Part shown: positions 7,772-54,350 of the stretch, piece after piece | Layout of the letters: each line of letters begins with the position of its first letter | How positions within the stretch are numbered: the first letter of the stretch is position 1 | IMG/VR virus record: IMGVR_UViG_3300025864_000001 | Location: 14,469-78,468 of that record | Length of the DNA stretch: 64,000 nt | From: a virus | Strand: one strand, 5' to 3' | The notes under the pieces: model-generated | The model's input: the letters and a program-made list of their open reading frames with translations, nothing else | The model's database searches: none | Told to the model about the DNA's origin: nothing | Position numbers and translations under genes: made by a program

Positions 7772-7953
7772 ATATGATAGGGGTCTGCATGCGTGCGTTT
7801 AGCTGTGTGCTGTGCGTTCTGATTGCCTCATTAATTGTGCCTTTGCGTGTGCTTTTATCTGTTTGCATGTTAATTATATGCTTTAATATTATGTAAAATA
7901 GCACAGTAAACGGGCTAAAAGTGTGTAATATTGTGGTTTTAAGTGGCTGACGA

Positions 7954-8571: not shown

Positions 8572-8594
8572 TAGTATTGATTTATCAGGGTGTT
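8560..8594. terminator. intrinsic terminator between convergent genes
   Basis: CCCTGATA/TATCAGGG stem with a flanking A-run. Confidence 0.65.
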
Positions 8595-8612
8595 AACTCG
8601 TTTAGGCTGCGT

Positions 8613-9119: not shown

Positions 9120-9143
9120 CTTATTTTGTGTTTTTGGTGCCGG

Positions 9144-9416: not shown

Positions 9417-9458
9417 CGTCTTGTGTGTTTAATGGTTAATACTCTGGTTTACTGTTTA

Positions 9459-9641
9459 TTATAGTCCGCAATCTGCATCAGACTGCATTTCATACTCTAA
9501 TTCGTAGAGTTCACTGGCTCTGTCTGCGCAATCCTCGCAGATATTGACATCAAGAGGGCTAATTTCCCCGTTCTCTATCATATCAACCTCTGTTTTAGAT
9601 AGTTGAAATTTCTCTTTACATATAATACAGGTGCGTTTCAT
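9459..9641 (-). CDS. small zinc-ribbon protein
   Basis: CIIC...CEDC. Confidence 0.65.
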   Translation of the reverse strand: MKRTCIICKEKFQLSKTEVDMIENGEISPLDVNICEDCADRASELYELEYEMQSDADCGL

Positions 9642-11597: not shown

Positions 11598-11668
11598 GTT
11601 TTTGCCCGTTACAAGTCGGGAATAATACAGAGTACAGGGGCGCAAGCCTCTGAAATGTAACCAAAAAC
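11598..11668 (+). ncRNA. twister ribozyme (type P3)
   Basis: P3 GTTTTTG/CAAAAAC, P4 CCCG/CGGG with loop TTACAAGT, P2 TACA/TGTA, GAGTA, P1 CAGGGGC-GCAA-GCCTCTG; both pseudoknots (UAC/GUA, GU/AC) pair. Confidence 0.88.
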
Positions 11669-35095: not shown

Positions 35096-38000
35096 TTATT
35101 TTTTAGACCTGATTGATTCATTTGCTATGTCACGAGCTGAACTTGCAGCATCGGCAGCCATCTCCTGTAATGTTGTGGTCTTTTCTGGCACTGGACGTGT
35201 CGTGGATTCGATGATGTTGGTTATGCTCTTTTTCGCCTCATCCATCTCCTCCTGTATGGTTAGTCCCATGGAATTAAGATTCCTTAGATACTCTGACCAA
35301 TAGACATTTGAGTAGGTTTTTCTATCTTCTTCACTCAGTTGTACACCCTGCCAGTATGAGGGTATTACAGGCTTATTTAACAGGTCATTCTTTTTGAGGA
35401 TAGAATACTCGGCTGGGTACTTCTTCTGCAGGTCAACGTCATTGAGAACATTAAATCTCTGGTTTTTTCCCGACTCGAGATGTTGAAAGTTTGTGCCAAT
35501 AGATTCATCTTTCGGGTACCAACCTGCATATACCTTAGTGAGCCTTTCGAGTTCCTGCATTACCGGCACCTGCTCATCCATGGACTTCTGTAACTGTCCT
35601 GATCGCTTCTTATCTGCCACGGTGTATGCACGTGCCAGTGCCTCTGCGGATAACCCTTTTTCTTCAGCATTTTTTATTGTTTTGAGAAAATCGGAATTTG
35701 CATCTCCCATTCTCTGAGCAAGTGCGGTGTATCTGTTTGTCAGATAATCAATATTTCGTTCCACATATACCTTTAATTCGGGTTTATCGAACTCTTGAAT
35801 CTTTATAACATTATTAAGTATAGTCTGTTTCCAATCTCTTTTCCTTCCATAATAGTCCAGATTGCCACGGATGCCATCATACATGTCCTGTGCGCCTTTA
35901 AAGAATGGCACCTGACTTCTGGCAATGTATGTCATAACATTTAATATCCTTTCATCTGTGGTGATATTGGCATTATGATAGGCAGATGCGTTGGGGTTCT
36001 GAATCGAGATGCCACGATAATCCCTGTCAAACGCTACCGATCCTATCCATCCCCATGTAGCATCAGCAAAAGCCGGAAGGTTAGAAGTCTCCCCTAATAT
36101 TGGTCTGTTGACTTTTGATAATTGAATTGGAAGGAACTTACTTACCTCTGATAACTGCGTGCCTGCATCTGCATAGTTGTAGTTATATAATGGAGACAAA
36201 TATCTTGCAACATTCACCTCTGATTTACCTACTTTAAAACTCAATGGGATATTGACAAGCGGTATCTTAGCCACTCCTTTCCTGCCCTCTCTGACCTTTC
36301 TTTCTTCTTCTGTCTCACCGGATAAGGTACTTGCAAGTATCCCTCCCATTTTGATAAGCATAAGAGTGCCTATCAATGTTAGGGGTGTTGTGGTAATGTT
36401 ATTCACAAGTATCCTTTGCAAGTCTGCCTGGAACTTTGCAAATGTCGGACCAATCAATGGTATTTTTGATGTAAAGTCCCATGTCTTGCCTACCGTAGAG
36501 TAGTTCTGAAACGCATCATAAGCCCTTCTGACAGACGCATCATGGCTCATGCCCTGCTCTCTGAAAACCAAGTATGCGGAAATCTTAGCGATATTATCTG
36601 CACCTACATACGCTTTTGTAGCGAGTTCATCGGCTTTGCTTAACTTGCCTCCCTCTTTGCTTTTAATGATTGCAAGTGGCTTCATTTCTCCGGTGAAAGC
36701 TACATCGCCTATCAGTCCGGTTTTTAATAATGCCTTATATACTTCGGGACTCTTGTGATATAATTTTATTGCTTCAGGAAACTTACCTAAGAATGATACT
36801 GGATTAATGCCATTAGCCGATGCAAAGAATATATTTCCTGTGACGTTCCCAAGTTGTACCATGGGATTATAGACAGTCCTTAGTTTCTTGTAAAACTGAT
36901 TTACATTCGATCTGTCAACCTTCTTAAAAGCATTGTAAAGGTCATTAGCAACTGCATTGGAGTAATAAAACCCTGTGAAGTCCTCAACGACATGGTTTAT
37001 CACTGCCTTGTTTCGGAACGGGCCCCAACTGTATGAACTTCCAAGCTTGGTGTATCCCTTTGGCACTGCTTCACCCTTCTTAAGCGATAACACGAAGTCG
37101 GGATGTTCCTGTATCACTAAGTCCATATAACCCTTTATAGCCACATTCTGTATCGTCTGCATGACTCTTTTTGCAGTAAGATAAGTCGGGTCACGTATGG
37201 CATGTTCCTTTTTCCATTCCGTACTTTCCTCACGTGCCTTAAACATATCGGTCATCATCTTTGTAGTGATGGCACTATTTCCCCTGTTAATAAACTCCTG
37301 TATGGCAGGGTCAAGTAATGTCTCCCCTTCATATTTATCGTACATGCGGGCAATGTATTTTGAGTCACCCGTCACATCTTTGTTTTTCAGATATGTCTCG
37401 GTGTCAAGGAACCCATTGGCATAGTTTGTCTCATGTACCCATGTATTCCAGTCCCTCATCTTAAAATATAGATTCTTTTCAGCAAGTGACAAGTCACCAT
37501 AACTCAGTTTCTCTATTGCAAACTCAGGATCAGGGTCAAGCACATCAAGCACCCTGCGTAATGATTCGGGATCTGAATGAACTATATCCAACCATTTCCC
37601 TCTTAGTTCTTTCGCTTCATAAGGTGCAAATGACTTAACTGTACCTGTGAATGCAAGTTTCCCTGGTTTCCCTCCTTTGCCATGTATGTCAGCCTGTGTA
37701 CGTCCCAATCCACCCCAGAAGTTAGTAATGGCTTTGCTTGGCCATCTCAATAAGTCCATTTGACTTTTCATGCCTGCCTGTAATACATTGGCAATACGAT
37801 TATTTAAAGCATCTCTGACCTTTACCAACTGTTTGTAGAGTACGGTGTTCATCAGTGGAATAGGATCGGGTGGCAGAAACCTTATTGCTACTTTACCATT
37901 ACCTCCTTTTTTCTTACCGAATGTCTTTAGCATCTCGTCCTCGGCATCCTTGGTGTGGTTGCCCATCTTCTTATCCATGTTGGTGGAGTTATTGGTAGCC

Positions 38001-41000
38001 TGTTTGCGCAAATCATCCTCAAACTTGCCTACATCTTCACGTAACTGTTTGGATTCCTCAAAAGTGATATCCCCCTTATCAAGAGCATCTAATACCTGAT
38101 CTACTTCGGTGTATGTCTTGTCTTTGAACTTAATTCCTTGTGTTGGCGATGTTTCTATCTTAGGTGCTTTTAATCCTGCACTTTCGAGAACTGCATCTGC
38201 ATCCGCTTGTGTTATTCTACCTTCTTCTACGAATTTCTTTAGATAGCCTCTGTCAAGTTCTCTCTGGTACTGAACCCTTAAATTTTCCTTGGTTGCTTCC
38301 GTAACTTGCTTCTCCCCAAATCTCTCTTTCAACCTTTCGTTAAAAGTAAGCATAGACTCTTCTTTGGGATTGCCTAATAAATCTTTTGATATATCTTGTA
38401 CTATTTCCGGTTTTGTGTTAAAATAACTATTACCGAGTTCTTCATATCCAAGTTCCTTCTCAATCTGAAGTATTTTATCTTTCGTTTTCTGATTCGGACT
38501 CTTTTCGTATGATTCAAGTAGTCTTTGGTAATGATCAACCTTTGCGCCTCTGGATTGTAGTTCTGCAATTTTCCCCCCAACTCCTGCAATCAGTTTACCT
38601 TGCGTTGTATTTTTGAGTTCTTCAATATTCGGCTTCACCTCTTTCGCATAATACATGTCCTTCAGAAGTTTCTCCGCACTCTTTTCAAGTTGTCCTCTGC
38701 CATCCATCAGTTTTGTCCCTGACATGTCAAGGAACTTATATGTGCCTTTTTTGGTGTTCATAACTACTTTCACCACGGGTTTACCGTCTTTGTTCTGCAA
38801 CCAAAAACCTTCTGGATTCTTTACTGCACTCCATCCGTATTTTGATACTGCATCATTGAGAGTGGTGCTTACTTTTTCTCCGGTGGCTGTGATAGGTTTT
38901 ATTTGTGCTTCAATTCTTGATATTGCTTCTTTTAGGTCAGCGATATTTTGTTTCCGCAACTGATTCTCCCCTATGCCACCCTTTTCCCAATCTGCTCCCT
39001 TTTCTTCAATACTGAGATTTGTTTTTAATTTATCTAATAGATCAGTTGGGTTTTCTCCCTGTTTCACCTTATCATTAAAACTATTTAGAGTGTTTACAAC
39101 TATCTTTTCTATTGGGGTAATGGGTAATTCAGAACCTTTTTTATCAATAACAGACTTGGTGTATTGCGTCCATTCTTCGGGAGTGTATTCTGATTTATTT
39201 TTTAATATCCCATCTGTGCGTCTTGCAAATTTTATTTCTTCGGGTTTTGTGATAGGTTTTGCTTCACCTTCTGTAACAACTGGTTCCTTACCTGCCTCTG
39301 TGCCTCCTGAAACGATATTTTCTTCTCCTTTGCTAATTGGAGGATTTGCTGTGTCAATTGGTTTTTCATCTATGATGGGTTTTACTTCTTCTGGCTTTCC
39401 AGTTTCTTTTGGTCCATTTTCTCCCGCAGGAGTCTCAATTCTTCCAGATACGATGTCCCCTTTGCCTTTGCCTTCAATAACAGGAGGCTGTGCAACCCTT
39501 TCGCTAAATTCGATTTTTTCTCCATTGTTTGATAGTATTTCGTTTAACTTTTTAATCTGTTCCGGTTTTAAATCAAATAACCAGTTATTGACAAAAAATT
39601 CAGGATCGGTTTTTATCTTATCCTTTATATAATCCCAATCGAACTCGCCACTGCCTAACTCAGTCTGGAAGGCTTTTATGGCATCCTCTACGTCCTTGTC
39701 TCCCTCTGCTGCCTTTACGAGATCAGTAAATTCTCCGGTGCTTTTGACTATTTCCAGGTCATCATCCATGTCTCTCTTTGCTCTTTCTTCGGGACTGAGA
39801 ACTTCTTTATCCTGCCAGTCAATCTCTTTATGACGTTCCTTGAACTTCTGAATTATAGTCCCTTTATTTAGTTTGCCGTCAACTTTAAGTGCGTCAATAG
39901 CCTTGAGAATGTCATCTGGTGTTATCTCTCCACCATTTTTTCTACCATATTCTTCTGCTAATCTCTCATGCAACACATCAAATGCCACACCCTTCTCTTT
40001 ATTAAGGTAGAAACTCAACCCTCCACCTACAATATCCTTATTACCATAGTTTGAATGCCTGAGAAAATCAGCCCTACTTAAAGTGCCTCCACTTAAAAGA
40101 AACTGAGCCATAGAATCCGTAAAATCACTCGGGGTTGCATTGACTATCTTTCCCGACTCACTATTTGGGGATATTTTAACAGTTCTTTTCGGCTTACTTG
40201 ACTTCTCAAGTGCTGCCTGAGCTCTGTCTACTTCTGCCTGTTGTTTTTTAGTGAGTTTTTTAGGCTCAACAATAGGTTCTTCTGTCTTGGCTTTTGGCTT
40301 ATCCGGTGCGGGTTCTATTGGCTTCTCTGGCTTATTGAACGACCACGTTTTATCAGGTAACTGTACTGCCTCCCCTGCCTCAACAAGTTTCTCCCATGCC
40401 TTTTGCATATCGGATGAGTTCTTACCTTCAACATCAGACATCAATACCTTTCCTTCTTTTAATGCCTCTTTATTCAAGAGTATCATTGCATCCCTTCCTG
40501 CTCCACGAGTATCTTTATCCGGTCTGGCTGCCTCAATCCATTTGATTCTCCATCCATCGGGGGTGTCCTCAATAGTGGCTTTTCCTACTTGTTCTTTGCC
40601 CTTTAAAATAGGTATATTGAATGAACTCTCGGATTTGATCTTTAAGATGTTTTTTTCTGACTGAGTTACAATATCCCGTTCTCCGATTGATACTTTATCC
40701 GTACCCTTTTCTTTTGCTTTCTCTTTCGGTATCATTGAATAGTAGTCACCAACCATCTTACTTTCTTCGGGTGTGCGTTCCTTAACTGGCTTATCAACGG
40801 CCATTAACAACTTATCAACATCAGTTCCCTTAGATTTTAAGTCAGAGATAATCTTAACCCTGTCAACATCCGGTTCTGCGGAACGTCTTTGCATCTTATT
40901 GTCTTCCAACTGCAAACCCATTTCAAGAGATGCCTGATCTGCCTCTTGCTTTGATGCGTACTTCCTCTTATCAACTAATACGCCCTCTTTGTTATAGATA

Positions 41001-42955
41001 TCCACAAACTCCTCATTTGGGACGACTTTTTCAGCATTGATATTGACATCCTGTATCGCAACTCCTCTTGCTCCCCAGAGTAGTTTCTGCTTTAGTAATG
41101 CAGGCACTTTATCTGAATTTAAAATATCAGCAAGTACTTTATCATCTTTCGATGCGATATCCATTACTGATTTATAGTCTTTTCCTCCCATGGCATCAAC
41201 CTCCCATGGTTCAATATCGACTTCAAATTGTCCCTGTCCGGGTTTCTTTGGGTCGTATTGCAATGACCGATATAGATTAGTCAGGGTTTCTTTAGGTTTT
41301 GTAACTGCCTCTGGAATATTCCCTGCTACATTTGATACTTTCAATAGTCCGAGTAATGCCACTGTTTCGAGAAACTCTTTGCCTGTGACTTCATTTGGCG
41401 CACGTCCGTCCAATAATGCGCCTCCATAGGTGAATAATGCACTCTCGGCAGTTAATCCTCCGGTTGCAACACCAACCTTAGTTCCTATTCTTGCTGCCGC
41501 ATTTGGTATTGCAGATGCCTTAGATGCTATCGCTGCACTTCCAAGTCCTAATCCTCCGACACCAACTCCAAGAGCAAAGTTTTTTACCCCTTTTTTAAGT
41601 GACTGCCCCCATTTAATATCATCAAAGTTTGCATCCGGTACTGCCCATTGATTTAATGCGTCTGATACTGAGGTATATGAACCAAGTGCTACACCTGATG
41701 ATGTCATTCCTGCAATGCTCTGAGATACCTTTGTAGCTGCATTTAGAGTGAGCTTTTTTGCAAGGGTTTCCTCTATGCCTGCTTTCATAAGTTTCTCAAC
41801 ACCTTTAGCCATTACCCTATCCACAATAGGCTTTGCTGCAACCTTGCCTATCTCTGCACCTACCTTGCCCATGCCACCAAAGAAAGGCATATCAATCATA
41901 AACCCAAGTGCGGTGGCTGTGGCATCGGTAAGCGTCCCTGCATCATATTTAGCCAACCATTCGGGAGATGTAAGTTCGCTTCCCGTCATAATCTTATTCG
42001 CTAATCCTATAAGGGACTGACTGTATGCTTTCCCAAAGAGATACTGTGCTTTTGTAGGAGTCGTTATCGCCTCAGTCAGTTTTGTTCTTTCTTGCTGTAA
42101 TTTCAGTTTCTCATCTTCTTCGGGGGTTGATGCAAATTTAAAATCTGTACCTGCACCGACATCCCCTGTCTGCATCTGTGCCTTCGGAAGTTCCTTTAAC
42201 TTAGTATCAATCTCGCTTATTCTTTTTTCGGCTTCCGCCTTGTATTCCCTATCAGTTATTCTCTTTCCAGATACATAAGCAGCAACGGTCCCGCTTAATG
42301 TTTCAAGTTCGGGTCCTTTAAACTCTGGTGATTTTAATGATAAATTAGGGGTGTCAAATTGATGCGTTTTTGGACGAGTTCTTAATGTACTTTCTTCATC
42401 AACATATAACTCATTGCCCATTTGTTCTTCGCCTTGCAATGTTTTTTCAAAAGTGGGATGATCAGGAGATTTTAATACTTTCCCATTTAAACCTATTGAA
42501 CCAAAATGAAAATCAGGGTCTGATTTTAAATAATCCCCCATTGAAGGTTTTAATGTTCCGCTTTGCTTTTCAGCCTCGTAAAATCCACGAAAATCATATA
42601 AATCATTCTCTGGTTCTCCTGCTGTCCATTTTTCAAAATTAACTTCATCTGATGGGCTTAATGTTGTTTTATTTAGTTTTGGACGTTGACTTACCTCTTT
42701 TGAAATATTGCCAAACATCTCTGAAAAAACTTCTTTGCTTGGCAGTCCATAGTCTGCCGGAGATTCTTTTTTTTTTACATAACCCTCATAGGTCTTGTAA
42801 TCACCAAGGTCTAATTCGCTACCTGCCTGATCGAAAATAGCTTTACGAAACTTCTCATCAGTACCTATCTGCTTTTCAAAATCAGCCTGTGTTCCTAATT
42901 CAAGTTTAGAACTAAGTTGGTCATATAATGCCTTGGTGTATTTAGGATCTTCCAT
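35096..42955 (-). CDS. large polyvalent internal virion / ejection protein with a GNAT-like domain
   Basis: 2619 aa after two ejection-like genes; Gly/Ala-rich hydrophobic segments; RGAGRDAM..SD..S.DMQKAWEKL GNAT-like block. Confidence 0.7.
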   Translation of the reverse strand: MEDPKYTKALYDQLSSKLELGTQADFEKQIGTDEKFRKAIFDQAGSELDLGDYKTYEGYVKKKESPADYGLPSKEVFSEMFGNISKEVSQRPKLNKTTLSPSDEVNFEKWTAGEPENDLYDFRGFYEAEKQSGTLKPSMGDYLKSDPDFHFGSIGLNGKVLKSPDHPTFEKTLQGEEQMGNELYVDEESTLRTRPKTHQFDTPNLSLKSPEFKGPELETLSGTVAAYVSGKRITDREYKAEAEKRISEIDTKLKELPKAQMQTGDVGAGTDFKFASTPEEDEKLKLQQERTKLTEAITTPTKAQYLFGKAYSQSLIGLANKIMTGSELTSPEWLAKYDAGTLTDATATALGFMIDMPFFGGMGKVGAEIGKVAAKPIVDRVMAKGVEKLMKAGIEETLAKKLTLNAATKVSQSIAGMTSSGVALGSYTSVSDALNQWAVPDANFDDIKWGQSLKKGVKNFALGVGVGGLGLGSAAIASKASAIPNAAARIGTKVGVATGGLTAESALFTYGGALLDGRAPNEVTGKEFLETVALLGLLKVSNVAGNIPEAVTKPKETLTNLYRSLQYDPKKPGQGQFEVDIEPWEVDAMGGKDYKSVMDIASKDDKVLADILNSDKVPALLKQKLLWGARGVAIQDVNINAEKVVPNEEFVDIYNKEGVLVDKRKYASKQEADQASLEMGLQLEDNKMQRRSAEPDVDRVKIISDLKSKGTDVDKLLMAVDKPVKERTPEESKMVGDYYSMIPKEKAKEKGTDKVSIGERDIVTQSEKNILKIKSESSFNIPILKGKEQVGKATIEDTPDGWRIKWIEAARPDKDTRGAGRDAMILLNKEALKEGKVLMSDVEGKNSSDMQKAWEKLVEAGEAVQLPDKTWSFNKPEKPIEPAPDKPKAKTEEPIVEPKKLTKKQQAEVDRAQAALEKSSKPKRTVKISPNSESGKIVNATPSDFTDSMAQFLLSGGTLSRADFLRHSNYGNKDIVGGGLSFYLNKEKGVAFDVLHERLAEEYGRKNGGEITPDDILKAIDALKVDGKLNKGTIIQKFKERHKEIDWQDKEVLSPEERAKRDMDDDLEIVKSTGEFTDLVKAAEGDKDVEDAIKAFQTELGSGEFDWDYIKDKIKTDPEFFVNNWLFDLKPEQIKKLNEILSNNGEKIEFSERVAQPPVIEGKGKGDIVSGRIETPAGENGPKETGKPEEVKPIIDEKPIDTANPPISKGEENIVSGGTEAGKEPVVTEGEAKPITKPEEIKFARRTDGILKNKSEYTPEEWTQYTKSVIDKKGSELPITPIEKIVVNTLNSFNDKVKQGENPTDLLDKLKTNLSIEEKGADWEKGGIGENQLRKQNIADLKEAISRIEAQIKPITATGEKVSTTLNDAVSKYGWSAVKNPEGFWLQNKDGKPVVKVVMNTKKGTYKFLDMSGTKLMDGRGQLEKSAEKLLKDMYYAKEVKPNIEELKNTTQGKLIAGVGGKIAELQSRGAKVDHYQRLLESYEKSPNQKTKDKILQIEKELGYEELGNSYFNTKPEIVQDISKDLLGNPKEESMLTFNERLKERFGEKQVTEATKENLRVQYQRELDRGYLKKFVEEGRITQADADAVLESAGLKAPKIETSPTQGIKFKDKTYTEVDQVLDALDKGDITFEESKQLREDVGKFEDDLRKQATNNSTNMDKKMGNHTKDAEDEMLKTFGKKKGGNGKVAIRFLPPDPIPLMNTVLYKQLVKVRDALNNRIANVLQAGMKSQMDLLRWPSKAITNFWGGLGRTQADIHGKGGKPGKLAFTGTVKSFAPYEAKELRGKWLDIVHSDPESLRRVLDVLDPDPEFAIEKLSYGDLSLAEKNLYFKMRDWNTWVHETNYANGFLDTETYLKNKDVTGDSKYIARMYDKYEGETLLDPAIQEFINRGNSAITTKMMTDMFKAREESTEWKKEHAIRDPTYLTAKRVMQTIQNVAIKGYMDLVIQEHPDFVLSLKKGEAVPKGYTKLGSSYSWGPFRNKAVINHVVEDFTGFYYSNAVANDLYNAFKKVDRSNVNQFYKKLRTVYNPMVQLGNVTGNIFFASANGINPVSFLGKFPEAIKLYHKSPEVYKALLKTGLIGDVAFTGEMKPLAIIKSKEGGKLSKADELATKAYVGADNIAKISAYLVFREQGMSHDASVRRAYDAFQNYSTVGKTWDFTSKIPLIGPTFAKFQADLQRILVNNITTTPLTLIGTLMLIKMGGILASTLSGETEEERKVREGRKGVAKIPLVNIPLSFKVGKSEVNVARYLSPLYNYNYADAGTQLSEVSKFLPIQLSKVNRPILGETSNLPAFADATWGWIGSVAFDRDYRGISIQNPNASAYHNANITTDERILNVMTYIARSQVPFFKGAQDMYDGIRGNLDYYGRKRDWKQTILNNVIKIQEFDKPELKVYVERNIDYLTNRYTALAQRMGDANSDFLKTIKNAEEKGLSAEALARAYTVADKKRSGQLQKSMDEQVPVMQELERLTKVYAGWYPKDESIGTNFQHLESGKNQRFNVLNDVDLQKKYPAEYSILKKNDLLNKPVIPSYWQGVQLSEEDRKTYSNVYWSEYLRNLNSMGLTIQEEMDEAKKSITNIIESTTRPVPEKTTTLQEMAADAASSARDIANESIRSKK

Positions 42956-44294: not shown

Positions 44295-45107
44295 TTAATT
44301 TTTACTACCACTATTAAGATACTTGCTGACTGCATTGGTAATATCATCCATACTGACATTTCCCGCAACTCCGCTATTTTTGCCCTTTCCCCATGCGAGT
44401 GAAGAATGAAAGTCATTGTTTTGATTCAGGGAACTGACATATTCTGCACCCGATCCAAGCACGTTCTTAACCCCTGAGTTAATATTCTTCAGTCCTGAGT
44501 CTCTTAACATCGCTGCTATCTGTGCTGCCTGCATATATGGTTGTGCTTTATTCCAATCCCATACACGGTTTTCTTCTCCGGCTTTTACTTCCAATGAGCG
44601 ACCATAGACATCCTTCTTTCCTGCGACATCCTGTGCTGTCATTTTTGCAAGGTCTCCAAATGAGTTTTGTTCCCTGCCAACCATTTCACCAAGCATACCA
44701 TAAGCCTCTGAACCACTACCAAGTTCCGATGCAGTTTTCATGCCTGCTGCGGTTGCTCCTTTTATCTCATTGCGGTACATCTCACCACCGGGGATATCCT
44801 GATTAAGAGTCTGTCCATACGAGTAATTGACAAGTTTTTCAATACTCGGTGCTATCGTTGCCTCCGGACGTGGACTCTGATCTTCAATCTTCTGTGCCTT
44901 CTTTAATTGTGAAGCACCTGTGATACCTTGAAATATCGAAGGAATAAGATTAAGCACCTGAGCGATGATCTCACTTGTGCCTCCTGATGCTGCACCCATT
45001 CCTATACGTGCTGCTGTACCTACTGCTGAAGACATGGCATTTCCTCCACCTCCTCCCCATTGAGATACAGGCTTAAATAAATTGGCTTTTGGTAAAGTAT
45101 AGTCCAT
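44295..45107 (-). CDS. putative DNA pilot/ejection protein
   Basis: Gly/Ala-rich N-terminus, Gln/Ala helical body. Confidence 0.6.
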   Translation of the reverse strand: MDYTLPKANLFKPVSQWGGGGGNAMSSAVGTAARIGMGAASGGTSEIIAQVLNLIPSIFQGITGASQLKKAQKIEDQSPRPEATIAPSIEKLVNYSYGQTLNQDIPGGEMYRNEIKGATAAGMKTASELGSGSEAYGMLGEMVGREQNSFGDLAKMTAQDVAGKKDVYGRSLEVKAGEENRVWDWNKAQPYMQAAQIAAMLRDSGLKNINSGVKNVLGSGAEYVSSLNQNNDFHSSLAWGKGKNSGVAGNVSMDDITNAVSKYLNSGSKN

Positions 45108-45152
45108 GACTTTAAATATTAATCAATTTTGGGGTAATTAGGTTTTTAGTTT

Positions 45153-45449
45153 TCATACCCATTCTATTTTATTGTTTGTAATATAGTAATGTGCATGATA
45201 GGGGTTTTGTCCTTTCCAATTTCCTATTGAGGGGCGCAATGTAACAGTGCCATTTATGTTTTCAGTTAAATCCCAGCCGTCCTTCCATTCGGGTTTAAGA
45301 TCACAAACAGTTAATCCTCCGCAGCCACAGGCACATAAATGAGTGGCGAAGCCTCTTATTTTTGTAATGTATAACTTACCCTCTTCAAAATCCTTAAAAG
45401 CGGGGGTTTGTTCAACAAATACGGGTATTATTTCAGCTAATTTACTCAT
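45153..45449 (-). CDS. DUF6527-like zinc-binding protein
   Basis: HLCACGCG..W..VTLRPSIGN...HYYIT...IEW. Confidence 0.75.
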   Translation of the reverse strand: MSKLAEIIPVFVEQTPAFKDFEEGKLYITKIRGFATHLCACGCGGLTVCDLKPEWKDGWDLTENINGTVTLRPSIGNWKGQNPYHAHYYITNNKIEWV

Positions 45450-45452
45450 TTT

Positions 45453-48263
45453 TTAAATATTTCGTTCGCTTGGTGTTGAAAATATTACTATCGAATCAAT
45501 TCTTACTTTCTCATCGTGTTCCTCGGTGTTCAACTTCACAAAACAGTATCTTCCTCTCATTGCCCTTCCATTCATCTTTCTGTCATTAAGACTTATAAAA
45601 CTACCCTTTGAGTTTTCATCTTTAAGTACCTCTCCAAAGAACACCCCTTCTCTCCTGTCCCAAATCGGAACATTGCTTTCCATGATGTCATTGCCTCCCG
45701 ATGCTTCTGTGGGTATGTAAACATATTTGGGTAATGAGTTCATCTCGTGATCTGCAAACAGCGCAATCGCATTATAAACCTTATTCCTGACAGGTTCTAT
45801 GTTCGACACAACCTCTATCTCTGCATAAGTAGGCACTCCGACCCATGAAAGATAATCCTGTCCCTCATCAACATTCATTATCCAAACCCTTTGATGATAC
45901 AAATGTGCGAAGAAATTTCCTAAGTGGACGTATGATTCGGTTATTTGATTGATTCGCGATATGTACCGACCCTGCTTCTCACTGAAAATAACACCCCGTA
46001 CCTCGTCTCCCATCCTGAACGTCAACCATATCTCATCATGCTCATTATTAGCACCTGTGCGTGTCTCTAAGGTCTTACCGCCACCGTTTGCCTGTATCCA
46101 CTTAATAAGGTCTTTGAACCACCGCTTCATCTTAATATCCAAGACTATCTGACCATTGGGTGCTGACCGAATAAATTTACCCTGTGAGTGATCCCAATAA
46201 TAAAGATTCCTGCCATTGACCATGATACTATCGGGGTGCTGACATCCATAATCCGATTCCATAGGTCGTTGTTCTGCAAGGAACTTATCTGTAAGGGTGA
46301 ACTGCTCCGTGCCATCAGGATTAAAAGTCTGTATGCGGTTGATGTAGATGCTCGTCTCTTTATACATCTGAATGACTTTCAGCGTGTATCCTACCTCCCT
46401 GAGTCCTGTAATATCACCGTTCCTCTTTGGTAAGTCCATAAAGTCATCAAAAGTAAAATGAGCGATGTTGTTTGTCCGCGTGCCGGTTATCAGGAATCCA
46501 CCGTGGCGTATTCTCTCATCCAACACCCTCTGTCTCTGACTGAGATCGTCAAGGAACGGAAATCCTATGGATGTTAGTCTATTTGTAACAATCTGGTCTC
46601 TCCACCAATCGCTCGGGAACATGCTCTCGGCCCAGAATGGTTGTATCTCGGTTGACTCAAACTTATAGTTTAGTCTATAATATTTCCAACTATCATTTGC
46701 AGTATTATTAACCTCGGCAGCAACAATACATACTCCATTTGCATCGAAGGACTGATCAACGTCTCCTTTATGATACCTATTGCCAAATACATCAGTTGCA
46801 ATATCAAATACCATCCCCGTGCCATAAGCAACCGTCTGAGACAGTCCTTTACGTGGTCGATAAACCTCTACAAGAATATTAGTTTCGTTGACAAATAGAT
46901 TAGGGCGGTGTGTAGCTTGAAAAATCAACCAATCACCACCAATAGGTTCTTCATCGTACTGAGTTCCTGTTGCTTCAATCTCATAATCATAAACGAACCC
47001 GCCACCAATGGCCTCTCCATAATATGTTGTCTGATTAATAATTCCCATAAGCCTTAACCGATCTCCTGCGAGCCAATCATAAGGGGGCACTCTCCACCTA
47101 TTATTTTGAGTCTGCGTCCATACAATAGTATCTGCAATATTTAATGAGAATCGGTTCACTGCGCCTGCAAGTGCGGTAATATTATTTGCCCTCATCTGCA
47201 AAAAATAATCCATAGAGACGTTACCAAAATAAACTATCTCATAAGACTCTGCCCATGAAGGAGGTTTATGATTAATCTTAAAGACCAGTTTTGCTATTGT
47301 CTCAAAAAGATTATTAGAATCTTCCGAATAGAAAGGTATATAAACTGTAAATATTGGTGTTTTAATTACGGAACAACACCTCCCTGCCCGATCTTTATAT
47401 ACTATTCCAAAAGCATGAGTAGCACCACATTTAAGAATCGGAAAAGTTACTGTATTGCCATAAGAGAGAATGTATGCGGCAAAATAAAAATCTTTAAATA
47501 CTGTGGTTACGTCTCCCGCTTCAAGTGTCGGTGTTTGCTTAAATAGTCTGTATCTTGTGTATATCCATATAGAATGCCCATCTGCGGAAACACCTACATA
47601 TTCAAATCCTCTTGCATTAAGATCGACAATAAGTCCTCCTACAACTGTTGTATAAATATCTCCGGGTGCTGCTGTATATGATGCGGTCATATTGGCAATA
47701 CCCTCCGAGTCATTCTCTACAGTGATATTATAAGATGATCCTTCTACAATTATATCAGGAATTGTCACTACGGCAACACCTACTATCTTACGAAAGGTCA
47801 TCTCCCCTACCCTACCTAACTGATACCAATAAAGATTAGCAGGGTCACCAACACCACTTGATTCAGGTATCTGCCCTATTGGAGAAGTTGCTATACAGGC
47901 ATAGTAATACGCATTATAAGTAACTACATCGCCTTTATAATACTGAGTAAAATCATTCCATACGGGTGCTACTGAATTTGCTATTGTTGTGCCAATTTGA
48001 TGAAACGTCAATGCAAGATCAGTTCTCGGAGACCGTAACGACACATTCTCATAAGAGAGTTCAACCTCTATATTCGCCTCAACAACATCATAACCCTCGG
48101 TGATCTTACCAAACACCACGGCATTGCCTCCTACAAGTTCCATGTGACCTGCTACAATAGGCACATAGGTAAATGGCTCTGCGATACTGCTTGCAGGAAT
48201 GATCTCCTTTACCCTGTCATTGTAAAAGGCTACGTCAATATCCGTGTTGTGAGAACCAATCAT
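45453..48263 (-). CDS. tail muzzle/stabilisation protein, C-terminal part (CBM5/12-like insert)
   Basis: FYND, FGIVYKDRAGR, KPPSWAESY, GDITGL, DYGCQHPDS, RREG.F, GRAMRGRY motifs of crAss-type stabilisation proteins. Confidence 0.8.
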   Translation of the reverse strand: MIGSHNTDIDVAFYNDRVKEIIPASSIAEPFTYVPIVAGHMELVGGNAVVFGKITEGYDVVEANIEVELSYENVSLRSPRTDLALTFHQIGTTIANSVAPVWNDFTQYYKGDVVTYNAYYYACIATSPIGQIPESSGVGDPANLYWYQLGRVGEMTFRKIVGVAVVTIPDIIVEGSSYNITVENDSEGIANMTASYTAAPGDIYTTVVGGLIVDLNARGFEYVGVSADGHSIWIYTRYRLFKQTPTLEAGDVTTVFKDFYFAAYILSYGNTVTFPILKCGATHAFGIVYKDRAGRCCSVIKTPIFTVYIPFYSEDSNNLFETIAKLVFKINHKPPSWAESYEIVYFGNVSMDYFLQMRANNITALAGAVNRFSLNIADTIVWTQTQNNRWRVPPYDWLAGDRLRLMGIINQTTYYGEAIGGGFVYDYEIEATGTQYDEEPIGGDWLIFQATHRPNLFVNETNILVEVYRPRKGLSQTVAYGTGMVFDIATDVFGNRYHKGDVDQSFDANGVCIVAAEVNNTANDSWKYYRLNYKFESTEIQPFWAESMFPSDWWRDQIVTNRLTSIGFPFLDDLSQRQRVLDERIRHGGFLITGTRTNNIAHFTFDDFMDLPKRNGDITGLREVGYTLKVIQMYKETSIYINRIQTFNPDGTEQFTLTDKFLAEQRPMESDYGCQHPDSIMVNGRNLYYWDHSQGKFIRSAPNGQIVLDIKMKRWFKDLIKWIQANGGGKTLETRTGANNEHDEIWLTFRMGDEVRGVIFSEKQGRYISRINQITESYVHLGNFFAHLYHQRVWIMNVDEGQDYLSWVGVPTYAEIEVVSNIEPVRNKVYNAIALFADHEMNSLPKYVYIPTEASGGNDIMESNVPIWDRREGVFFGEVLKDENSKGSFISLNDRKMNGRAMRGRYCFVKLNTEEHDEKVRIDSIVIFSTPSERNI

Positions 48264-48264
48264 T

Positions 48265-48717
48265 TTAACTTATATAAATTAGGCCAAGGGTGTTCCACTT
48301 TATTGTGCTTGTGCCATTATTGACTACTTCGTTACCGGTTATGTCTCCCGTGAACTCTATCTGGGCCCTTATTTTTGATGTTGCCTGAACACCTGTGTTC
48401 TCAAACAAAATACCAAATTTATAATTCAGCGTGGCTCCGGGACCAATAACCTTATCATCTAAGTCGAGATAATAGTTATACACTCCTGCACTCGGACTAT
48501 GCTCTACCGATATCTTGCCTGAGACAGCCACTCCACCTGTGGTGTATTTACCACCGACATCAGTAATCTCTTTTGCCACAACATCAGATACAAATTGCTG
48601 TGTGCTGGCATTGGGAACATGTGTGCTATTGAGAAGCATGAGATACAATGTCTCCGCGACAAACTTATCAGCGACTTCTTTTTTTACAAACTTTGGAATA
48701 CAACTTAAATTTGCCAT
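48265..48717 (-). CDS. small virion (minor tail-type) protein inserted in the split muzzle locus
   Basis: LMLL...VSDVVAKEI..GKYTTGG..LDLDD..GT.TIKWN..G pattern. Confidence 0.65.
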   Translation of the reverse strand: MANLSCIPKFVKKEVADKFVAETLYLMLLNSTHVPNASTQQFVSDVVAKEITDVGGKYTTGGVAVSGKISVEHSPSAGVYNYYLDLDDKVIGPGATLNYKFGILFENTGVQATSKIRAQIEFTGDITGNEVVNNGTSTIKWNTLGLIYIS

Positions 48718-48729
48718 ATCATTATATTT

Positions 48730-50373
48730 TTATGTCCATCTACCATAAAAAGTTTCATATACACGACCCTCCCCGACCCTGTCAGCATAGAAGGTAACAT
48801 AATCTCCACTGGTGTAATCTCCTGTATAATAGAGTTCAATTTCAGTAGCAGAAAGTATATTATAAACATGTATCCAGTCATTTTCAGATGGCCATAATAT
48901 ACCCCATGAGTCACCAGTTGTGGTTACTGTAATTGTTTTTCTATGACCTTCTCCTGCACCTTCGAAGTTCCATGAAGCAGGACTAATTGAAATTGACAAA
49001 GCAGTACTATAAGTGGTTGTAAGCGTTGCGGTAGTGGAATTTGCACCCGTGCCACCGGTACTATAAGCCCTTACACGATAATAGTAGAATGTATGCTCAG
49101 TTAATCCAATAACATCAGCATTTAGAACAGTGCCAAGAATCTTGCTATCATATCCTGCTACAAACGTGGCAAAATTATCAGTAGACACGTCAAGATAATA
49201 TCCTACTGCCCCTGATACTGCCTGCCATTTAGCCCTGAAACTTGTTGACAAGACATTATCTGCACCCATATTTATTGGCACACCAAAACTCACGTTCTCC
49301 ACGGTTGGAATCATCACCGCCATAGTTAAGGTTATATATCCCGGTTCAGATGTTACTGATACCTCTCCACCACGTTCCTGTTCTTCAAACTTATTGATAG
49401 TCTCAATCAGGAACCACTTGGATGGGTCTTGGCTACTCCTGCCTATGATCTCTATGGCACGTACTTCTTCTCCACCTGAGTTAACCTTTATGTTTAATTG
49501 ATTATTCAGTGAGATCATCTCATTAGCGAGTCCGGTGGCTGTTTCTTCTTCTGCCTGTGGCACGGGAACGATACTTGCAGGAGAAAAGGTACTCTTTCTC
49601 CAATCCATGTACACATAGCGATATGCCACCTGAAATAATGTCTGCCTGAGATTATTTATCTTACGTTTATCATCCGATTCATAACTCACTACTGGCGGGT
49701 GTACGGGTGGCACGGGTTCAAAGTAAAAGTTCTTAACATCCATCGAGTAATACGCATCCTCAATAAGACAAAGCCTTGTCCAATACGTGCCAACATCAAG
49801 TACAAAACTGTCTGTCCTTGGCTCATGTCCGAGATTATTATGAATACGACTCTTGTAGAAGTTATTGCCATTACTGACAATCTGATCAATGCCATAGGTG
49901 TCTATTGCACTCCACTCCACTGTCACCGGATACTGACCATAGCCAATCTTATAATAGAAGGATTTTTTGGCACGTGCGATATCCATCTGATAGATAGGAT
50001 TCAGGTTATCCGTCCACACGAGTCTGCCATGCACCACACGGGCATTGTAAATCTTATGATCTCTGTCAAAGCCAATATCATTGTACTTATCGTAGTACAC
50101 CACTACCTGTTCCCTGGTGTCAATGTTTATCTCTATTATCCATGCTCCTCCAAGTAACGTATCAATATAAAATACATATAGGCATCTCATCTCTGGGTCA
50201 ATGCAATTACCACACAGGAGAATATTTGTGATGTACGAGGGGATATTAGTAGGACTAAGGGTATTGGTGTCCTTAATAAGCCTCACCGACCTGAAATAAG
50301 TCTTTAATGCAGATGTCTTTGTGGCTGCTGCGCTTGTACTTGAAAGGGATAATATCTTTGCGTAATCACTCAT
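48730..50373 (-). CDS. tail muzzle protein, middle part, with a FISUMP C-terminal strand, CBM-like, FN3 and BACON-like domains
   Basis: LVWTDNLNP, FQVAYRYVY.D..S.FSP.S muzzle motifs; FN3 SFRAKWQAVSGA.GY.LDVS..YYYRVRAY; likely start ATG 50373. Confidence 0.75.
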   Translation of the reverse strand: MSDYAKILSLSSTSAAATKTSALKTYFRSVRLIKDTNTLSPTNIPSYITNILLCGNCIDPEMRCLYVFYIDTLLGGAWIIEINIDTREQVVVYYDKYNDIGFDRDHKIYNARVVHGRLVWTDNLNPIYQMDIARAKKSFYYKIGYGQYPVTVEWSAIDTYGIDQIVSNGNNFYKSRIHNNLGHEPRTDSFVLDVGTYWTRLCLIEDAYYSMDVKNFYFEPVPPVHPPVVSYESDDKRKINNLRQTLFQVAYRYVYMDWRKSTFSPASIVPVPQAEEETATGLANEMISLNNQLNIKVNSGGEEVRAIEIIGRSSQDPSKWFLIETINKFEEQERGGEVSVTSEPGYITLTMAVMIPTVENVSFGVPINMGADNVLSTSFRAKWQAVSGAVGYYLDVSTDNFATFVAGYDSKILGTVLNADVIGLTEHTFYYYRVRAYSTGGTGANSTTATLTTTYSTALSISISPASWNFEGAGEGHRKTITVTTTGDSWGILWPSENDWIHVYNILSATEIELYYTGDYTSGDYVTFYADRVGEGRVYETFYGRWT

Positions 50374-50375
50374 AA

Positions 50376-52175
50376 TTAAATATCTCTCATACACCTCACT
50401 GAAAATCCATTATGCTTATTATTATTGTTTTCAATGCAACTAATTAATGTTGACTGTATATCTCTGGTATATGCAGTCGTTCCTGCACTTTGAGGAGTGG
50501 TCCAGTAAGACGATAGTGTATTTATACCACTGAAAGTTCCCACGGTATTCCTCATGCCTCCCCCTACTGCCTTGAAACCAATTTCATCTGAAGCACCTGT
50601 GTTTGGCGTATTCCAATGGATTAATCCCATTTCCTTTAATTTTCCCCCTGCGACACCTGTTCCGCCTAATGCTGCTATTAAAGTATTATAGTCGGTTCTC
50701 GTACCAACTCTCCATCCATTAGATGCTATTCCTAATTGTTGGAATTGCCCATCTGCGGCTAACCCATGAGCATTATTTATTCCATACCAATCATAGAGAG
50801 CACCGTAATCCTTGTTTATTATGTCGTTATTATACCAACAATATGCTCCTATCACATCTGCGGCCCAATCGCCATTAACGTTTAGGTTTGGGACTACCGA
50901 ACCATCAGCATACTTTGTAGTCTTTAGGTTTTCCACGAGCCATTCCTGATTACCAATAATTACAGTATGGTATTCGTTGCCGTCAATATCAATAATTCCA
51001 TCCGGTGCTTCATCTGCCAGCCATAATAATCCTGTACTACCCAATAGATCATAGACAAGATCACTTCCAATAGCTGCACCGTAATAGAGAGAATTATCTA
51101 TAATTAAATCATTACAAAGTTTAGCCGCGCTGGCTGTATGTCCTACCTGATTAATTATTGCTGTGGTATTTGCTTGTCCTGTGCCTATTAAAGTGCCGGT
51201 TCCTGCAAATCCAGAAATAACATTACTCCAGTCAGAAGGAATTAAGTCGTTTAATGCAGCTTCTAAATAATCATTTCCTGATTTCCAAAAGATCAATCCT
51301 CCAGCAGGGCCTATATCTCTTAAATTATAAACAGTAGTTGAAGTAAAGGCACGACAAGGACGGAATCTGTTACTTTCGTTTTTAAATATATTTCCATATT
51401 GAACTCCATCCCCAAAAGATTGAACCCATATTATAGATTCAGATGGGTGTGTTGTTTCTGATGATGTGAGATATAATGTATTTGAATAATCACCCATTAT
51501 ATCATAAAATCCACCAATTCCATGCAAATGGAGTTCAGTATACATTGCATTTAACTCATCCTTTGAAGGAAGGAACCAATCACTATATGAAAAATAAGGT
51601 GAAATAATATCCATCCCAAAGCCTCCTCCTGGCATTGCTTTGAAGCCACTGCTGTCCGTTGCTACTGTGTGCGGATCATCCCACCAACCAATATCTTTTA
51701 GTTTGTCTCCTGCTACTGCCGCACCAAGTAGGTTTAAAATCAGCGTAGTAACTTCTGCTTCTGTCGGTACATGCCATCCCTCTGGACAAAAATCTGATGC
51801 TAAAATCTGATCATGCGTGTATAGTCCTCCAAAGACATCCCTGTTGTTCTCATCATCATTATAGACTTTGCTTCCGGGATAATTGGCATCCCAATTCTTT
51901 TTCATCCAGACTTGATTGCCAATTTTACATTCTAAAAATCCTGAATAGACGAATTGTCCACCAATGGCAGACCCGTAATAAGTTATTGCTGAATCAGGAT
52001 TTATAAGTATTTCGATTTCCGACTGGAGTGTTTCTGCAGGACCTTCGCCATGTTGCTGATCACTGCCACCCGTACGCACGTTTAACGCATCAGGATAATC
52101 CGAAGGCGGAAGATTTGCAGGATTGTCATCTGTGTTCAATCCTCCACGAAAGTCATGTAAGTCTTTCAGTTGCAT
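50376..52175 (-). CDS. muzzle N-terminus fused to FISUMP / permuted DUF1566 / FISUMP domains
   Basis: F.GGLNTDD..L...DY.DALNVR start; IGNQVWM..N, CPEGWHVP, GFSVRCMRD; DWFLPSKDEL, GPAGG. Confidence 0.8.
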   Translation of the reverse strand: MQLKDLHDFRGGLNTDDNPANLPPSDYPDALNVRTGGSDQQHGEGPAETLQSEIEILINPDSAITYYGSAIGGQFVYSGFLECKIGNQVWMKKNWDANYPGSKVYNDDENNRDVFGGLYTHDQILASDFCPEGWHVPTEAEVTTLILNLLGAAVAGDKLKDIGWWDDPHTVATDSSGFKAMPGGGFGMDIISPYFSYSDWFLPSKDELNAMYTELHLHGIGGFYDIMGDYSNTLYLTSSETTHPSESIIWVQSFGDGVQYGNIFKNESNRFRPCRAFTSTTVYNLRDIGPAGGLIFWKSGNDYLEAALNDLIPSDWSNVISGFAGTGTLIGTGQANTTAIINQVGHTASAAKLCNDLIIDNSLYYGAAIGSDLVYDLLGSTGLLWLADEAPDGIIDIDGNEYHTVIIGNQEWLVENLKTTKYADGSVVPNLNVNGDWAADVIGAYCWYNNDIINKDYGALYDWYGINNAHGLAADGQFQQLGIASNGWRVGTRTDYNTLIAALGGTGVAGGKLKEMGLIHWNTPNTGASDEIGFKAVGGGMRNTVGTFSGINTLSSYWTTPQSAGTTAYTRDIQSTLISCIENNNNKHNGFSVRCMRDI

Positions 52176-52954
52176 TAGCGTTTGGGTGCCTGATAATAAG
52201 ATCCATAAACATATTGTAAATATTCTGAAGCAGTAAACTCCTGTTGAAAGTCACGGAGTGCAGCTATTTCCTTATCGTGCTGTTCTTCCAATCTGAATTT
52301 TGCATTAAAAGCCACCCTTGGGTCATTCTCGTCTTTTTTCCACAAGACATAAGTCCTGAGTGCTGCAACACATTCACGTGGGATAAGCGAACCTCCTCCT
52401 ATGCGAAGTCCTGATGAGATGTATTCAAGTACAATTTCTGAACGTGGTGTCTCTCCTGAGAATACCAACTGGTGATTTTCTCTGTCAACTCTGAATCCGG
52501 CAACGTCAATGCCTCCGGGAAGTCCATACAGTCCACCAATAAAAGAGCCGTTACGCCAGTGATCTTGGAAATAGATTGCTCCTGCGACTGCGGTTATATC
52601 ATTGATTGTTGTATTGCCTATTGCCGTGCCATCATCATCGAAAACCCTTGGCAGTAAGATATTGTCATTGCGTGTTATCACTTTGAGACTGCCATTAATC
52701 GGATATCCTATTTTGAGATAATCCACATAATCGGCAGGTAACGCACATGTTTTTCCAAGTGACATGTGAAGATATACGACTTCGGAACCCGCATCGAGAT
52801 GAAAGAGTGATAACTCCTCTGAGAAGCCTTCAATGGCTATCTGTGTAAATCGCATATACTGCTTCATTGTATAGTCCTGCAACCTGTTTAATACAGACAT
52901 CACGACATATCTTATCGTCACAAGCCCTGCTGATTTTGGTATCGCTGTACTCAT
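52175..52954 (-). CDS. tail ring/tubular protein (P22 gp4-like)
   Basis: LPADYVDYLKIG, IVLEYISSG; directly upstream of the muzzle locus. Confidence 0.7.
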   Translation of the reverse strand: MSTAIPKSAGLVTIRYVVMSVLNRLQDYTMKQYMRFTQIAIEGFSEELSLFHLDAGSEVVYLHMSLGKTCALPADYVDYLKIGYPINGSLKVITRNDNILLPRVFDDDGTAIGNTTINDITAVAGAIYFQDHWRNGSFIGGLYGLPGGIDVAGFRVDRENHQLVFSGETPRSEIVLEYISSGLRIGGGSLIPRECVAALRTYVLWKKDENDPRVAFNAKFRLEEQHDKEIAALRDFQQEFTASEYLQYVYGSYYQAPKR

Positions 52955-52956
52955 GG

Positions 52957-53652
52957 CTATTGGTTTTGAGGTTTAATTACCATATCATTTGCGGTGTCGG
53001 GCAATGGTTTTTTACTCATCAGGTCAACTACTTGACGTATGATATTATCTTCCATGCCACTCGGAATTGCCACATCATCATAATCGTCCACAACATCAAA
53101 TGGAGTTATTAACAGGATGTCAACACTCGTTATAAGTGTATCTGGTGCGACGGGTAGTTTTTCAAGCCATAACATATGACTTGGTTCGCCTGCACCGATA
53201 TTGACATTACTCTGCTCAAGTCTAAACGTAGGATAATCATCCATAGTGCTTACTTCCAACTCATCAAAGATAGCATTTGCCGTGGCTTCAATAGGTGCAA
53301 ATAGCCACTGATCTCCAATGGCGCCACCATAATACACAGAACACTCATAATGACTCTTTATCTGACGTATGCTCATCATGTCGGGTAACTGAACCGGTGC
53401 AAATGGCAGCAAGCAATAAGCTCTTGCGCCACACTGATTAACAACTGCGCATACATAAGTCTTGCTCCACGCATCGAGCTGACTGAAGTCACTGAATTTC
53501 TTCCCATTTAGCCACGTGTTGTATATTGCCTGATTGAATACATTGTTAAGATGTTGTTTCACAATCTCAGGATGGTAGATGCCTTTTGAATCCCCGGCAT
53601 TATCCGAACTCATGAAGTCCAATATGGTGTCGACCAAATTTATCTTTTTCAT
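52957..53652 (-). CDS. tail ring protein
   Basis: 231 aa in the ring-gene run; contains YYGGAIG. Confidence 0.6.
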   Translation of the reverse strand: MKKINLVDTILDFMSSDNAGDSKGIYHPEIVKQHLNNVFNQAIYNTWLNGKKFSDFSQLDAWSKTYVCAVVNQCGARAYCLLPFAPVQLPDMMSIRQIKSHYECSVYYGGAIGDQWLFAPIEATANAIFDELEVSTMDDYPTFRLEQSNVNIGAGEPSHMLWLEKLPVAPDTLITSVDILLITPFDVVDDYDDVAIPSGMEDNIIRQVVDLMSKKPLPDTANDMVIKPQNQ

Positions 53653-54350
53653 TGTCCTGTTTGTATTTGCTGATTAGCAATCTGCACCAATTCACCTTCA
53701 CGCAAGTTCACCCCGATATATTTCAAAACCATCATGGTTAATGTAATCCATTCGTCCTGAGTCCATTCAAATGGAATCGAGTTTACTGCATCATACGTCA
53801 CAAATCCATCTCCAAGGGTATATATAAACTCTGGCTCAATTGGAAATCTGTAATAGAAAAAATCCACGGCAGTAATTGTCAGTGGCAGGATGTATATCCC
53901 TGTCCTTCTTACTACCCCGATTGGATTCTGTTCTGTTGGCCTCTTGGTGTAATTTCCATTTCTTGCAGAGAACTCAGCCTCTCGAAGTATCTCTACTGGT
54001 TTTGGAAATATCTCTGCAGCACCTTTTATCGTCTTGGTGTAGCTATAAGATATTGTGTCCCTGTGCGCATAGTCGGTAGGAAATGGCAAAACCCCTGCCG
54101 TAACAGGGGTGTTTATAAGTGCCATCTTAAACGCTTTCAGATCATCGGTGTTTTTTAAAGTAATGTCCGCATATTCATTGGGAACGGGTCGCCCTGGTTG
54201 GTATTCCTCAGGCAGTCCATATTTATTTCGGAAGAGATCAATCGACACGACCTTGATAAGTTCATTAAACCTCTCGGGTGTGATTATATTCCCCGAAAAG
54301 TCTTTATTCGTGATGAACTTTATGAGAGAAAACATATTATCTAAAGTCAT
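53649..54350 (-). CDS. tail ring/adaptor protein
   Basis: NK..SG.ITPERFN...L..Y.GVNLRE..L.Q.A pattern. Confidence 0.65.
   Translation of the reverse strand: MTLDNMFSLIKFITNKDFSGNIITPERFNELIKVVSIDLFRNKYGLPEEYQPGRPVPNEYADITLKNTDDLKAFKMALINTPVTAGVLPFPTDYAHRDTISYSYTKTIKGAAEIFPKPVEILREAEFSARNGNYTKRPTEQNPIGVVRRTGIYILPLTITAVDFFYYRFPIEPEFIYTLGDGFVTYDAVNSIPFEWTQDEWITLTMMVLKYIGVNLREGELVQIANQQIQTGQ

Follow-up and report, generated by a model that had tools for sequence, protein, structure and literature searches.

The muzzle, the tail-tip nozzle of crAss-like phages, is encoded in pieces in the virus record IMGVR_UViG_3300025864_000001: three genes, termed P1, P2 and P4 here, between them encode every part of a single-chain muzzle once and only once, and a further gene, P3, lies in the second of the two breaks. 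The split is real: a crAss-type muzzle gene underwent fission long ago, and the divided state has become fixed; probably, the products of the pieces assemble in trans. The record comprises 78,468 bp with direct terminal repeats and is rated 100% complete. The window analyzed in this study is the 64,000-nucleotide (nt) stretch from base 14469 to base 78468, and contigs containing it derive from peat metagenomes. Coordinates of the locus are positions in the window, and all features of the locus lie on the minus strand.

P1 (50376-52175; 599 amino acids, aa) starts with the N-terminal ring-joining segment of the muzzle and continues into lectin-type modules. P2 (48730-50373; 547 aa from the ATG at 50373) contains propeller blades 1-2 and the IG1 domain, followed by FN3 and a β-rich tail. 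P3 (48265-48717; 150 aa) encodes a small tail-associated protein, and P4 (45453-48263; 936 aa) provides the remaining muzzle, i.e. the IG2/distal domain, propeller blades 3-7 and the C-terminal domain. These four open reading frames (ORFs) match a first-pass annotation made from the sequence alone, both in the coordinates of the three muzzle pieces and in the complete 150-aa gene within the second break. The genes are packed stop to start, each with its own conserved ATG, and combine conserved cores with variable C-terminal tails on P1 and P2. The start of P1 overlaps the stop of the upstream gene in TAATG; the junctions read TAA, 2 nt (tt) and ATG for P1/P2, TAA, 12 nt and ATG for P2/P3, and TAA, 1 nt (a) and ATG for P3/P4. 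The stops of P1 and P2 occupy 50376-50378 and 48730-48732, and a separate gene stands between P2 and P4. The one-gene, one-polypeptide organization of the family of gp44, the crAss001 muzzle, is thus not found here: there are three ORFs, and the split is kept in relatives.

P1, P2 and P4 tile one single-chain crAss-type muzzle in order, and five independent lines of evidence agree on this. In BLASTP comparisons with P0228, a single chain of 1196 aa, P1 aa 1-54 correspond to residues 1-54 (44% identity, E 1.5e-9), P2 aa 54-331 to residues 70-338 (37% identity) and P4 aa 5-935 to residues 346-1195 (34% identity, E 1.6e-153). The same order was obtained with the single chains P0096 and P0231. Single-chain muzzles from metagenomes are each encoded by one ORF (1133-1404 aa in the P0228 group, ~1180 aa in the P0096 group), and the three pieces match them in order and over their whole length at 33-44% (P0228) or 24-42% (P0096) identity. 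When we aligned each piece family to 13 single-chain proteins with hhalign, the P1 family mapped with residues 1-58 to residues 1-58 of the single-chain family (probability 88%, E 3e-6), the P2 family with residues 55-332 to 70-286 (E 2e-25) and the P4 family to 288-1157 (E 4e-94). PHROG 14478 is a virion-protein profile of 1474 positions; its positions 171-282 match P2 and its positions 857-1166 match P4. A search of the whole genome with P0228 recovered just the three pieces, in order, and found no second muzzle copy in this complete genome with its terminal repeats; the 60-aa N-terminus of P1 is likewise the sole copy. Collinearity of the fragments with one muzzle protein, as claimed in the first-pass annotation, is therefore borne out by BLASTP, hhalign and the whole-genome search. 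Among 50,697 phage records, tblastn with P2 and P4 as queries recovered no hit at 1e-5.

To compare the pieces with known structures, we generated AlphaFold models of P2 and P4 and analyzed them by Foldseek and structure alignment. The muzzle gp44 of Bacteroides phage crAss001 (PDB 7QOK/7QOL; Bayfield et al. 2023, PMC10172136) is the top Foldseek match of both models (chains 7qok_A/7qol_P; E 8e-4 for P2, E 1e-10 with 7qol_P for P4), and the two match consecutive ranges. P2 aa 8-330 align to gp44 54-269 (Z 10.2, root mean square deviation (rmsd) 5.4 Å, 185 residues), and P4 aa 56-931 to gp44 316-1371 (Z 8.2), with 374-383 of 876 residues aligned. Both models, which are of moderate confidence, show the gp44-type fold and domain order. 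Sequence similarity to gp44 is not detectable with hidden Markov models (HMMs): gp44 was missed when the PDB was searched with sequences and profiles, and only fold comparison retrieved it.

In gp44, a ring-joining domain is followed by a seven-bladed propeller, with IG1 (163-292) between blades 2 and 3 and IG2 (318-1021) inside blade 3 (PMC10172136). The domain order is the same here, from the ring-joining domain, blades 1-2 and IG1 through an IG2-based distal domain to the remaining blades and the C-terminal domain; however, gp44 is one chain of about 1370 aa, in contrast to three chains and an intercalated gene. On the published gp44 domains, the first break maps to the transition from the ring-joining domain to blade 1 and the second to the transition from IG1 to blade 3. 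P1 carries the ring-joining segment of ~55 residues (aa 1-58, 52002-52175, homologous to the first ~55 residues of single-chain muzzles), P2 carries blades 1-2 and IG1, and P4 extends from the IG1/blade-3 transition to the C-terminus. P4 aa 1-59 are nearly invariant in the family, yet disordered in the monomer model, with a predicted local distance difference test (pLDDT) score of ~27. This is as expected of an interface and supports the proposed assembly.

At its C-terminus, P4 ends in a β-sandwich (aa 790-936, 45456-45896) that is common to podophage nozzles and the C-terminal domain of the crAss muzzle. By fold comparison it matches the nozzle C-termini of VP1, Pa223, SU10 and A4 (Z 5.4-6.3). 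The match of PF25729 (crAss_MUZ_C) to this part of P4 is weak (15.1 bits, cutoff 27); 13 of the 26 P4 family members match this profile at E <= 0.01, and the single chain P0096 passes it with 29.5 bits. The distal region differs from gp44 in that its 'crass fold' appears to be replaced at least partly: P4 aa 97-270 match CBM5/12 and GbpA/CbpD-type modules in fold comparison rather than the gp44 distal domain. Within this region, aa 130-270 (47454-47874) resemble a domain of 450-aa phage 'structural proteins' (9mt4_Q and 9c39_H; E 5e-4, family profile), as well as GbpA/CbpD-type modules and a Bas63 baseplate protein (Z 6-6.7).

The split is widely conserved. The order P1-P2-P3-P4 is kept in 15 viral loci, in which P4 is 44-71% identical. 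P4-type proteins covering 100% of P4 form about 90 clusters, down to 47% identity, and P2-type cores form 120 clusters of 369-949 aa. Contigs from two peat samples cross the junctions unchanged, and a minor population variant carries one extra spacer base at the junction and retains the stop. The stops are therefore genuine and do not reflect assembly errors, and the three-way split of a muzzle gene proposed in the first-pass annotation is supported both by the collinearity of the fragments and by the integrity of their junctions.

Relative to gp44, the pieces have gained adhesin-type tails at their C-termini, as they have relative to most single-chain muzzles, which lack FISUMP, FN3 or similar tails. 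On P1, Fib_succ_major (PF09603, FISUMP) scores 148.4 bits in two stretches (gathering score 33.9). A DUF1566/Lcl_C-like module (aa 191-363, 51087-51605; Lcl_C matches aa 194-275) is nested in the first FISUMP domain; the rest of this domain and a complete second FISUMP at the new C-terminus follow (aa 364-599, 50379-51086), with aa 405-597 covering profile positions 1-187 of 187. The first ~200 aa of P1, comprising the ring-joining segment and a FISUMP domain, are conserved in eight relatives, and the tails beyond vary, with FN3, Lcl_C, LRR, a second FISUMP or a BNR-like region. The nested module is absent from P1 of locus L001, and contigs in three metagenome runs skip it (51086-51609), their joints being placed at 88% likeness and possibly stemming from relatives; forms that carry the module and forms that lack it, whether strains or relatives, apparently coexist.

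The P2 tail (aa 366-547, 48733-49278) consists of FN3 and a 90-aa β-rich end and has a putative display role. The Pfam fn3 profile scores 27.7 bits, and FN3 fold matches span aa 374-447. Of the foreign modules that the first-pass annotation placed at the ends of the upstream pieces, FISUMP and FN3 are thus confirmed, whereas 'BACON-like' is not: the last 90 aa of P2 match no Pfam family even at E 10, and their pLDDT is under 50. A BACON domain (PF13004) is present in the tail of a relative, P0170. Some P2 relatives have no tail at all (369-398 aa), and the tails of the rest consist of FN3 arrays, Lcl_C, BACON, FISUMP or further modules. In loci L007-L009 the P2 core stands alone without a tail (394 aa), and a separate gene for a 929-aa Pel9A-like β-helix protein (6762-9551 in the coordinates of those loci) lies between P2 and P3.

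Two inserts interrupt the muzzle parts themselves. P2 aa 151-205 (49759-49923), located within the propeller blades, match the chitin-binding domain of chitinase C (Z 8.0, rmsd 1.1 Å, 47 residues) and no Pfam family; CBM_5_12 does match the homologous region in L001, at E 0.0034. P4 aa 97-153 (47805-47975), located in the distal domain, match chitin-binding folds with Z 7.2-8.0 and rmsd 1.4-1.7 Å, among them the ChiB domain (Z 7.2, rmsd 1.7 Å, 29% identity), and match Pfam CBM_5_12 below its cutoff at E 0.011. Overall, the CBM5/12 fold matches have Z 7.2-8.0 and rmsd 1.1-1.7 Å over 47-49 residues, so that the earlier assignment of CBM5/12-like inserts to P2 and P4 is upheld by fold, with Pfam scores remaining sub-threshold. 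By eye, the single chains P0228 and P0236 appear to carry a CBM5/12-like motif at the matching site. In addition, a peptide YYGxAIGG-F/L-VY occurs twice in P1 (including aa 363-375) and once in P4, where the family consensus differs. A weak 40-nt direct repeat (46989-47028 and 51945-51984, 73% identity) underlies this peptide, which could mark a recombination joint or a shared linker.

To reconstruct the history of the split, we built a tree of the P4-equivalent region from 26 split and 27 single-chain rows, chosen from larger hit lists (IQ-TREE quick search, LG+G4; support by the Shimodaira-Hasegawa-like approximate likelihood ratio test, SH-aLRT, only), and a tree of P2 cores. The split forms make up one clade nested among single-chain forms, with SH-aLRT support of 100 in the P4 tree and 99 in the P2-core tree. 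Both trees place the same set of eight single-chain proteins (the P0228 group) as sister to this clade. In this sister group, the equivalent of the P2 core starts at residue 72-259 rather than at about 45-60, and the single-chain P0236 bears an internal Lcl_C module that is 36% identical to that of P1. P0216 (861 aa) is a continuous P1-P2 chain in which the ring-joining segment is followed by FISUMP, Lcl_C and then the P2 core. It is the sole protein spanning the P1/P2 junction among 135 word-sharing candidates (473-1507 aa) scored from 5.8 billion clusters, and the P2-core tree places it as sister to a group (support 97) formed by the 31 other P2 cores. P0088, a P4 protein listed like P0216 on a 17,516-bp contig, falls into the basal polytomy of the split clade. 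Scans of viral contigs with P0228 and P0216 gave no match; a metagenome scan returned a further split locus, L023, and not the P0216 contig.

The basal position of the fused P0216 together with the grafted single chain P0236 suggests that domains were grafted first and that the gene was split later, in two steps. We regard a three-step history as the most economical and likely one. Modules would first have been inserted at the ring-joining/blade-1 site; the gene would then have been cut after IG1, with P3 in the gap; and a later cut, for which P0216 provides the evidence, would have followed the graft. The first-pass annotation had proposed that fission creates new C-termini for display. Conserved cores with variable tails, which include none, FN3 arrays, Lcl_C, BACON, FISUMP, LRR and BNR-like regions, fit this idea, but at the first break the graft seems to have preceded the cut, as judged from P0216 and P0236.

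P3 matches phrog_644, a widespread family of small phage proteins, and no Pfam family even at E 10. Relatives at 29% identity are encoded between minor tail protein genes of Gordonia siphophages. The gene is present in all split loci, and its HMM found no match within 10 kb of six single-chain muzzle genes; P3 is therefore a tail-associated gene in its own right rather than a fragment of the muzzle. A link between P3 and the split is suggestive only, as the single-chain loci that were read come from the distant group. An Atlas lead (score 0.88) that linked P3 to the GP4 fibre protein gp80 found no HMM support and was rejected.

Together, these data suggest how a divided muzzle might work. The pieces would be translated separately, probably by coupled termination and reinitiation, and would assemble non-covalently into the usual hexameric muzzle, in which a seven-bladed propeller is closed by two chains that contribute 2 + 5 blades (P2 and P4). 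The short N-terminal segment of P1 would clamp this chain between the tail ring and the propeller. Six FISUMP/Lcl_C arms and six FN3/Ig-like arms would then project at the new C-termini and, with the CBM5/12-like loop inserts, may bind glycans on the host surface, so that the muzzle would also serve as a carrier of host-recognition modules that can be exchanged. As P1 and P2 end in swappable domains of sugar-binding type, the tail tip probably also carries host-recognition modules. P3 probably represents an additional accessory protein of the tail, docking close to the break. The fuller picture appears reasonably likely: a two-chain propeller with a third-chain ring-joining arm, stable across a large clade from soil and peat, arose by stepwise cuts at a pre-existing insertion hotspot; the cut sites now serve as ports for module exchange, and P3 may be a new subunit tied to the split.

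Trans assembly has to be weighed against P4 forming the muzzle by itself, with P1 and P2 acting as independent fibres or adhesins whose muzzle segments are docking handles only and do not complete the propeller. The long adhesin-type tails of P1 and P2, the tail-free P2 core beside a separate β-helix gene in L007-L009 and the many domains that P4 folds unaided in its monomer model speak for this arrangement. Yet the P2 core is strongly conserved, with about 70 invariant columns in 32 sequences, and corresponds exactly to blades 1-2 and IG1. P4 lacks blades 1-2, of which the genome holds no other copy, and in the nozzle of the podophage A1002 the missing blades are provided by a second chain. 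We therefore consider a muzzle made of P4 alone unlikely.

More doubtful still is recoding by stop read-through or a programmed frameshift, which would rejoin the pieces in some or all of the product. The spacers are tiny, P1 and P2 share a frame in L005 and in one peat variant, where TAA and one codon separate them, and one fused P1-P2 record exists. However, among eight genomes the P1/P2 gap measures -8, -4, -1, -1, 1, 2, 2 or 3 nt, so that frame offsets of 0, 1 and 2 all occur; this variable spacing excludes a conserved frameshift. In addition, P2 and P4 have conserved start ATGs and N-terminal peptides, relatives show P3/P4 gaps of 1-9 nt, the entire P3 gene lies within the second break, and of the candidates scored, P0216 was the single one to span the first junction. 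Least probable of all is that the breaks are self-splicing introns, inteins, or assembly or pseudogene artefacts. In some crAss-like genomes MCP and TerL are indeed split by abundant introns and inteins (PMC7886860), but a scan of 45000-52600 matched no Rfam family, intron RNAs included, even at E <= 1 and no intein family turned up in the Pfam scans. Moreover, the DNA in the breaks codes for folded domains that are conserved (FISUMP, FN3) and contains the conserved 150-aa gene, and identical junctions recur in contigs of two samples and across diverged relatives.

Several observations weigh against trans assembly of a module-bearing, stepwise-split muzzle as preferred here. The monomer models of P2 and P4 are of moderate quality (mean pLDDT 63), and the propeller part of P4 at aa 550-685 is poorly modelled. 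Among the modules, Lcl_C on P1 scores 29 bits, under the Pfam cutoff, and PF02839 (CBM5/12) reaches 13.5-16.2 bits compared to a cutoff of 26.2. The two-step history depends on P0216, a single member on a single contig that is known here as a protein only, and the single-chain loci checked for P3 all come from a distant group. We infer from genes and models that three chains would be present in the virion and would bind each other, and that the modules may bind receptors.

The closest precedent for trans assembly is the Pseudomonas podophage A1002. Its nozzle propeller is completed by two chains, gp39 (nozzle-rope) and gp42 (nozzle-base), as visualized by cryo-electron microscopy (PLoS Biol 2026, PMC13730344). 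In A1002 an essential nozzle propeller draws on two polypeptides, as proposed for the present locus, and the additional chain also bears the structure to which the receptor-binding fibres are anchored (PMC13730344). A1002 differs in having two pieces instead of three and a T7/P22-type instead of a crAss-type nozzle; its complementing blades are located at the gp39 C-terminus, and its fibres are separate proteins on the 'rope' rather than domains fused to a fragment. That study established the split-nozzle principle for a different nozzle type with two chains. Our analysis contributes a close single-chain sister group, a grafted single chain, a basal fused form, trees and population variants; full-text literature searches found no description of a split crAss-type muzzle. 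If the preferred reading is correct, a conserved, essential tail machine tolerates cutting at domain borders, and phages exploit these cuts to convert an internal structural protein into a platform on which host-binding modules can be exchanged. The locus would then be a natural test case for assembly of split β-propellers, supply an annotation rule for muzzle genes that look 'missing' or 'truncated' in environmental crAss-like genomes and point to where host-range determinants are located in an uncultured clade. The graded series from single chain through grafted single chain and two pieces to three pieces makes the path testable.

Most genes of the window lie on the minus strand, and the region around the locus has a crAss-like gene order. 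It comprises a capsid gene (weak SU10_MCP match, phrog_13704), β-helix fibre genes with an endolysin and a peptidase, and three structural genes of ~230-260 aa, followed by the P1-P4 locus. These three consecutive genes (52175-54350, minus strand; 231-259 aa), two of which match virion structural PHROGs, lie upstream of P1 and occupy the position of the crAss001 ring-protein genes. Past the locus come a DUF6527 gene, two unknown genes, a giant gene and then a primase/helicase gene. The DUF6527 gene (45153-45449, minus strand; 98 aa, 65.7 bits) is immediately downstream of P4. The giant 2619-aa ORF (35096-42955, minus strand), for which Pfam and PHROG scans gave no informative match, takes the place of virion RNA polymerase or cargo genes in crAss-like phages. 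On the plus strand, 11598-11668 match the type-P3 twister ribozyme (RF03154) over the full model with 59.6 bits (gathering score 39.9, E 1.6e-10).

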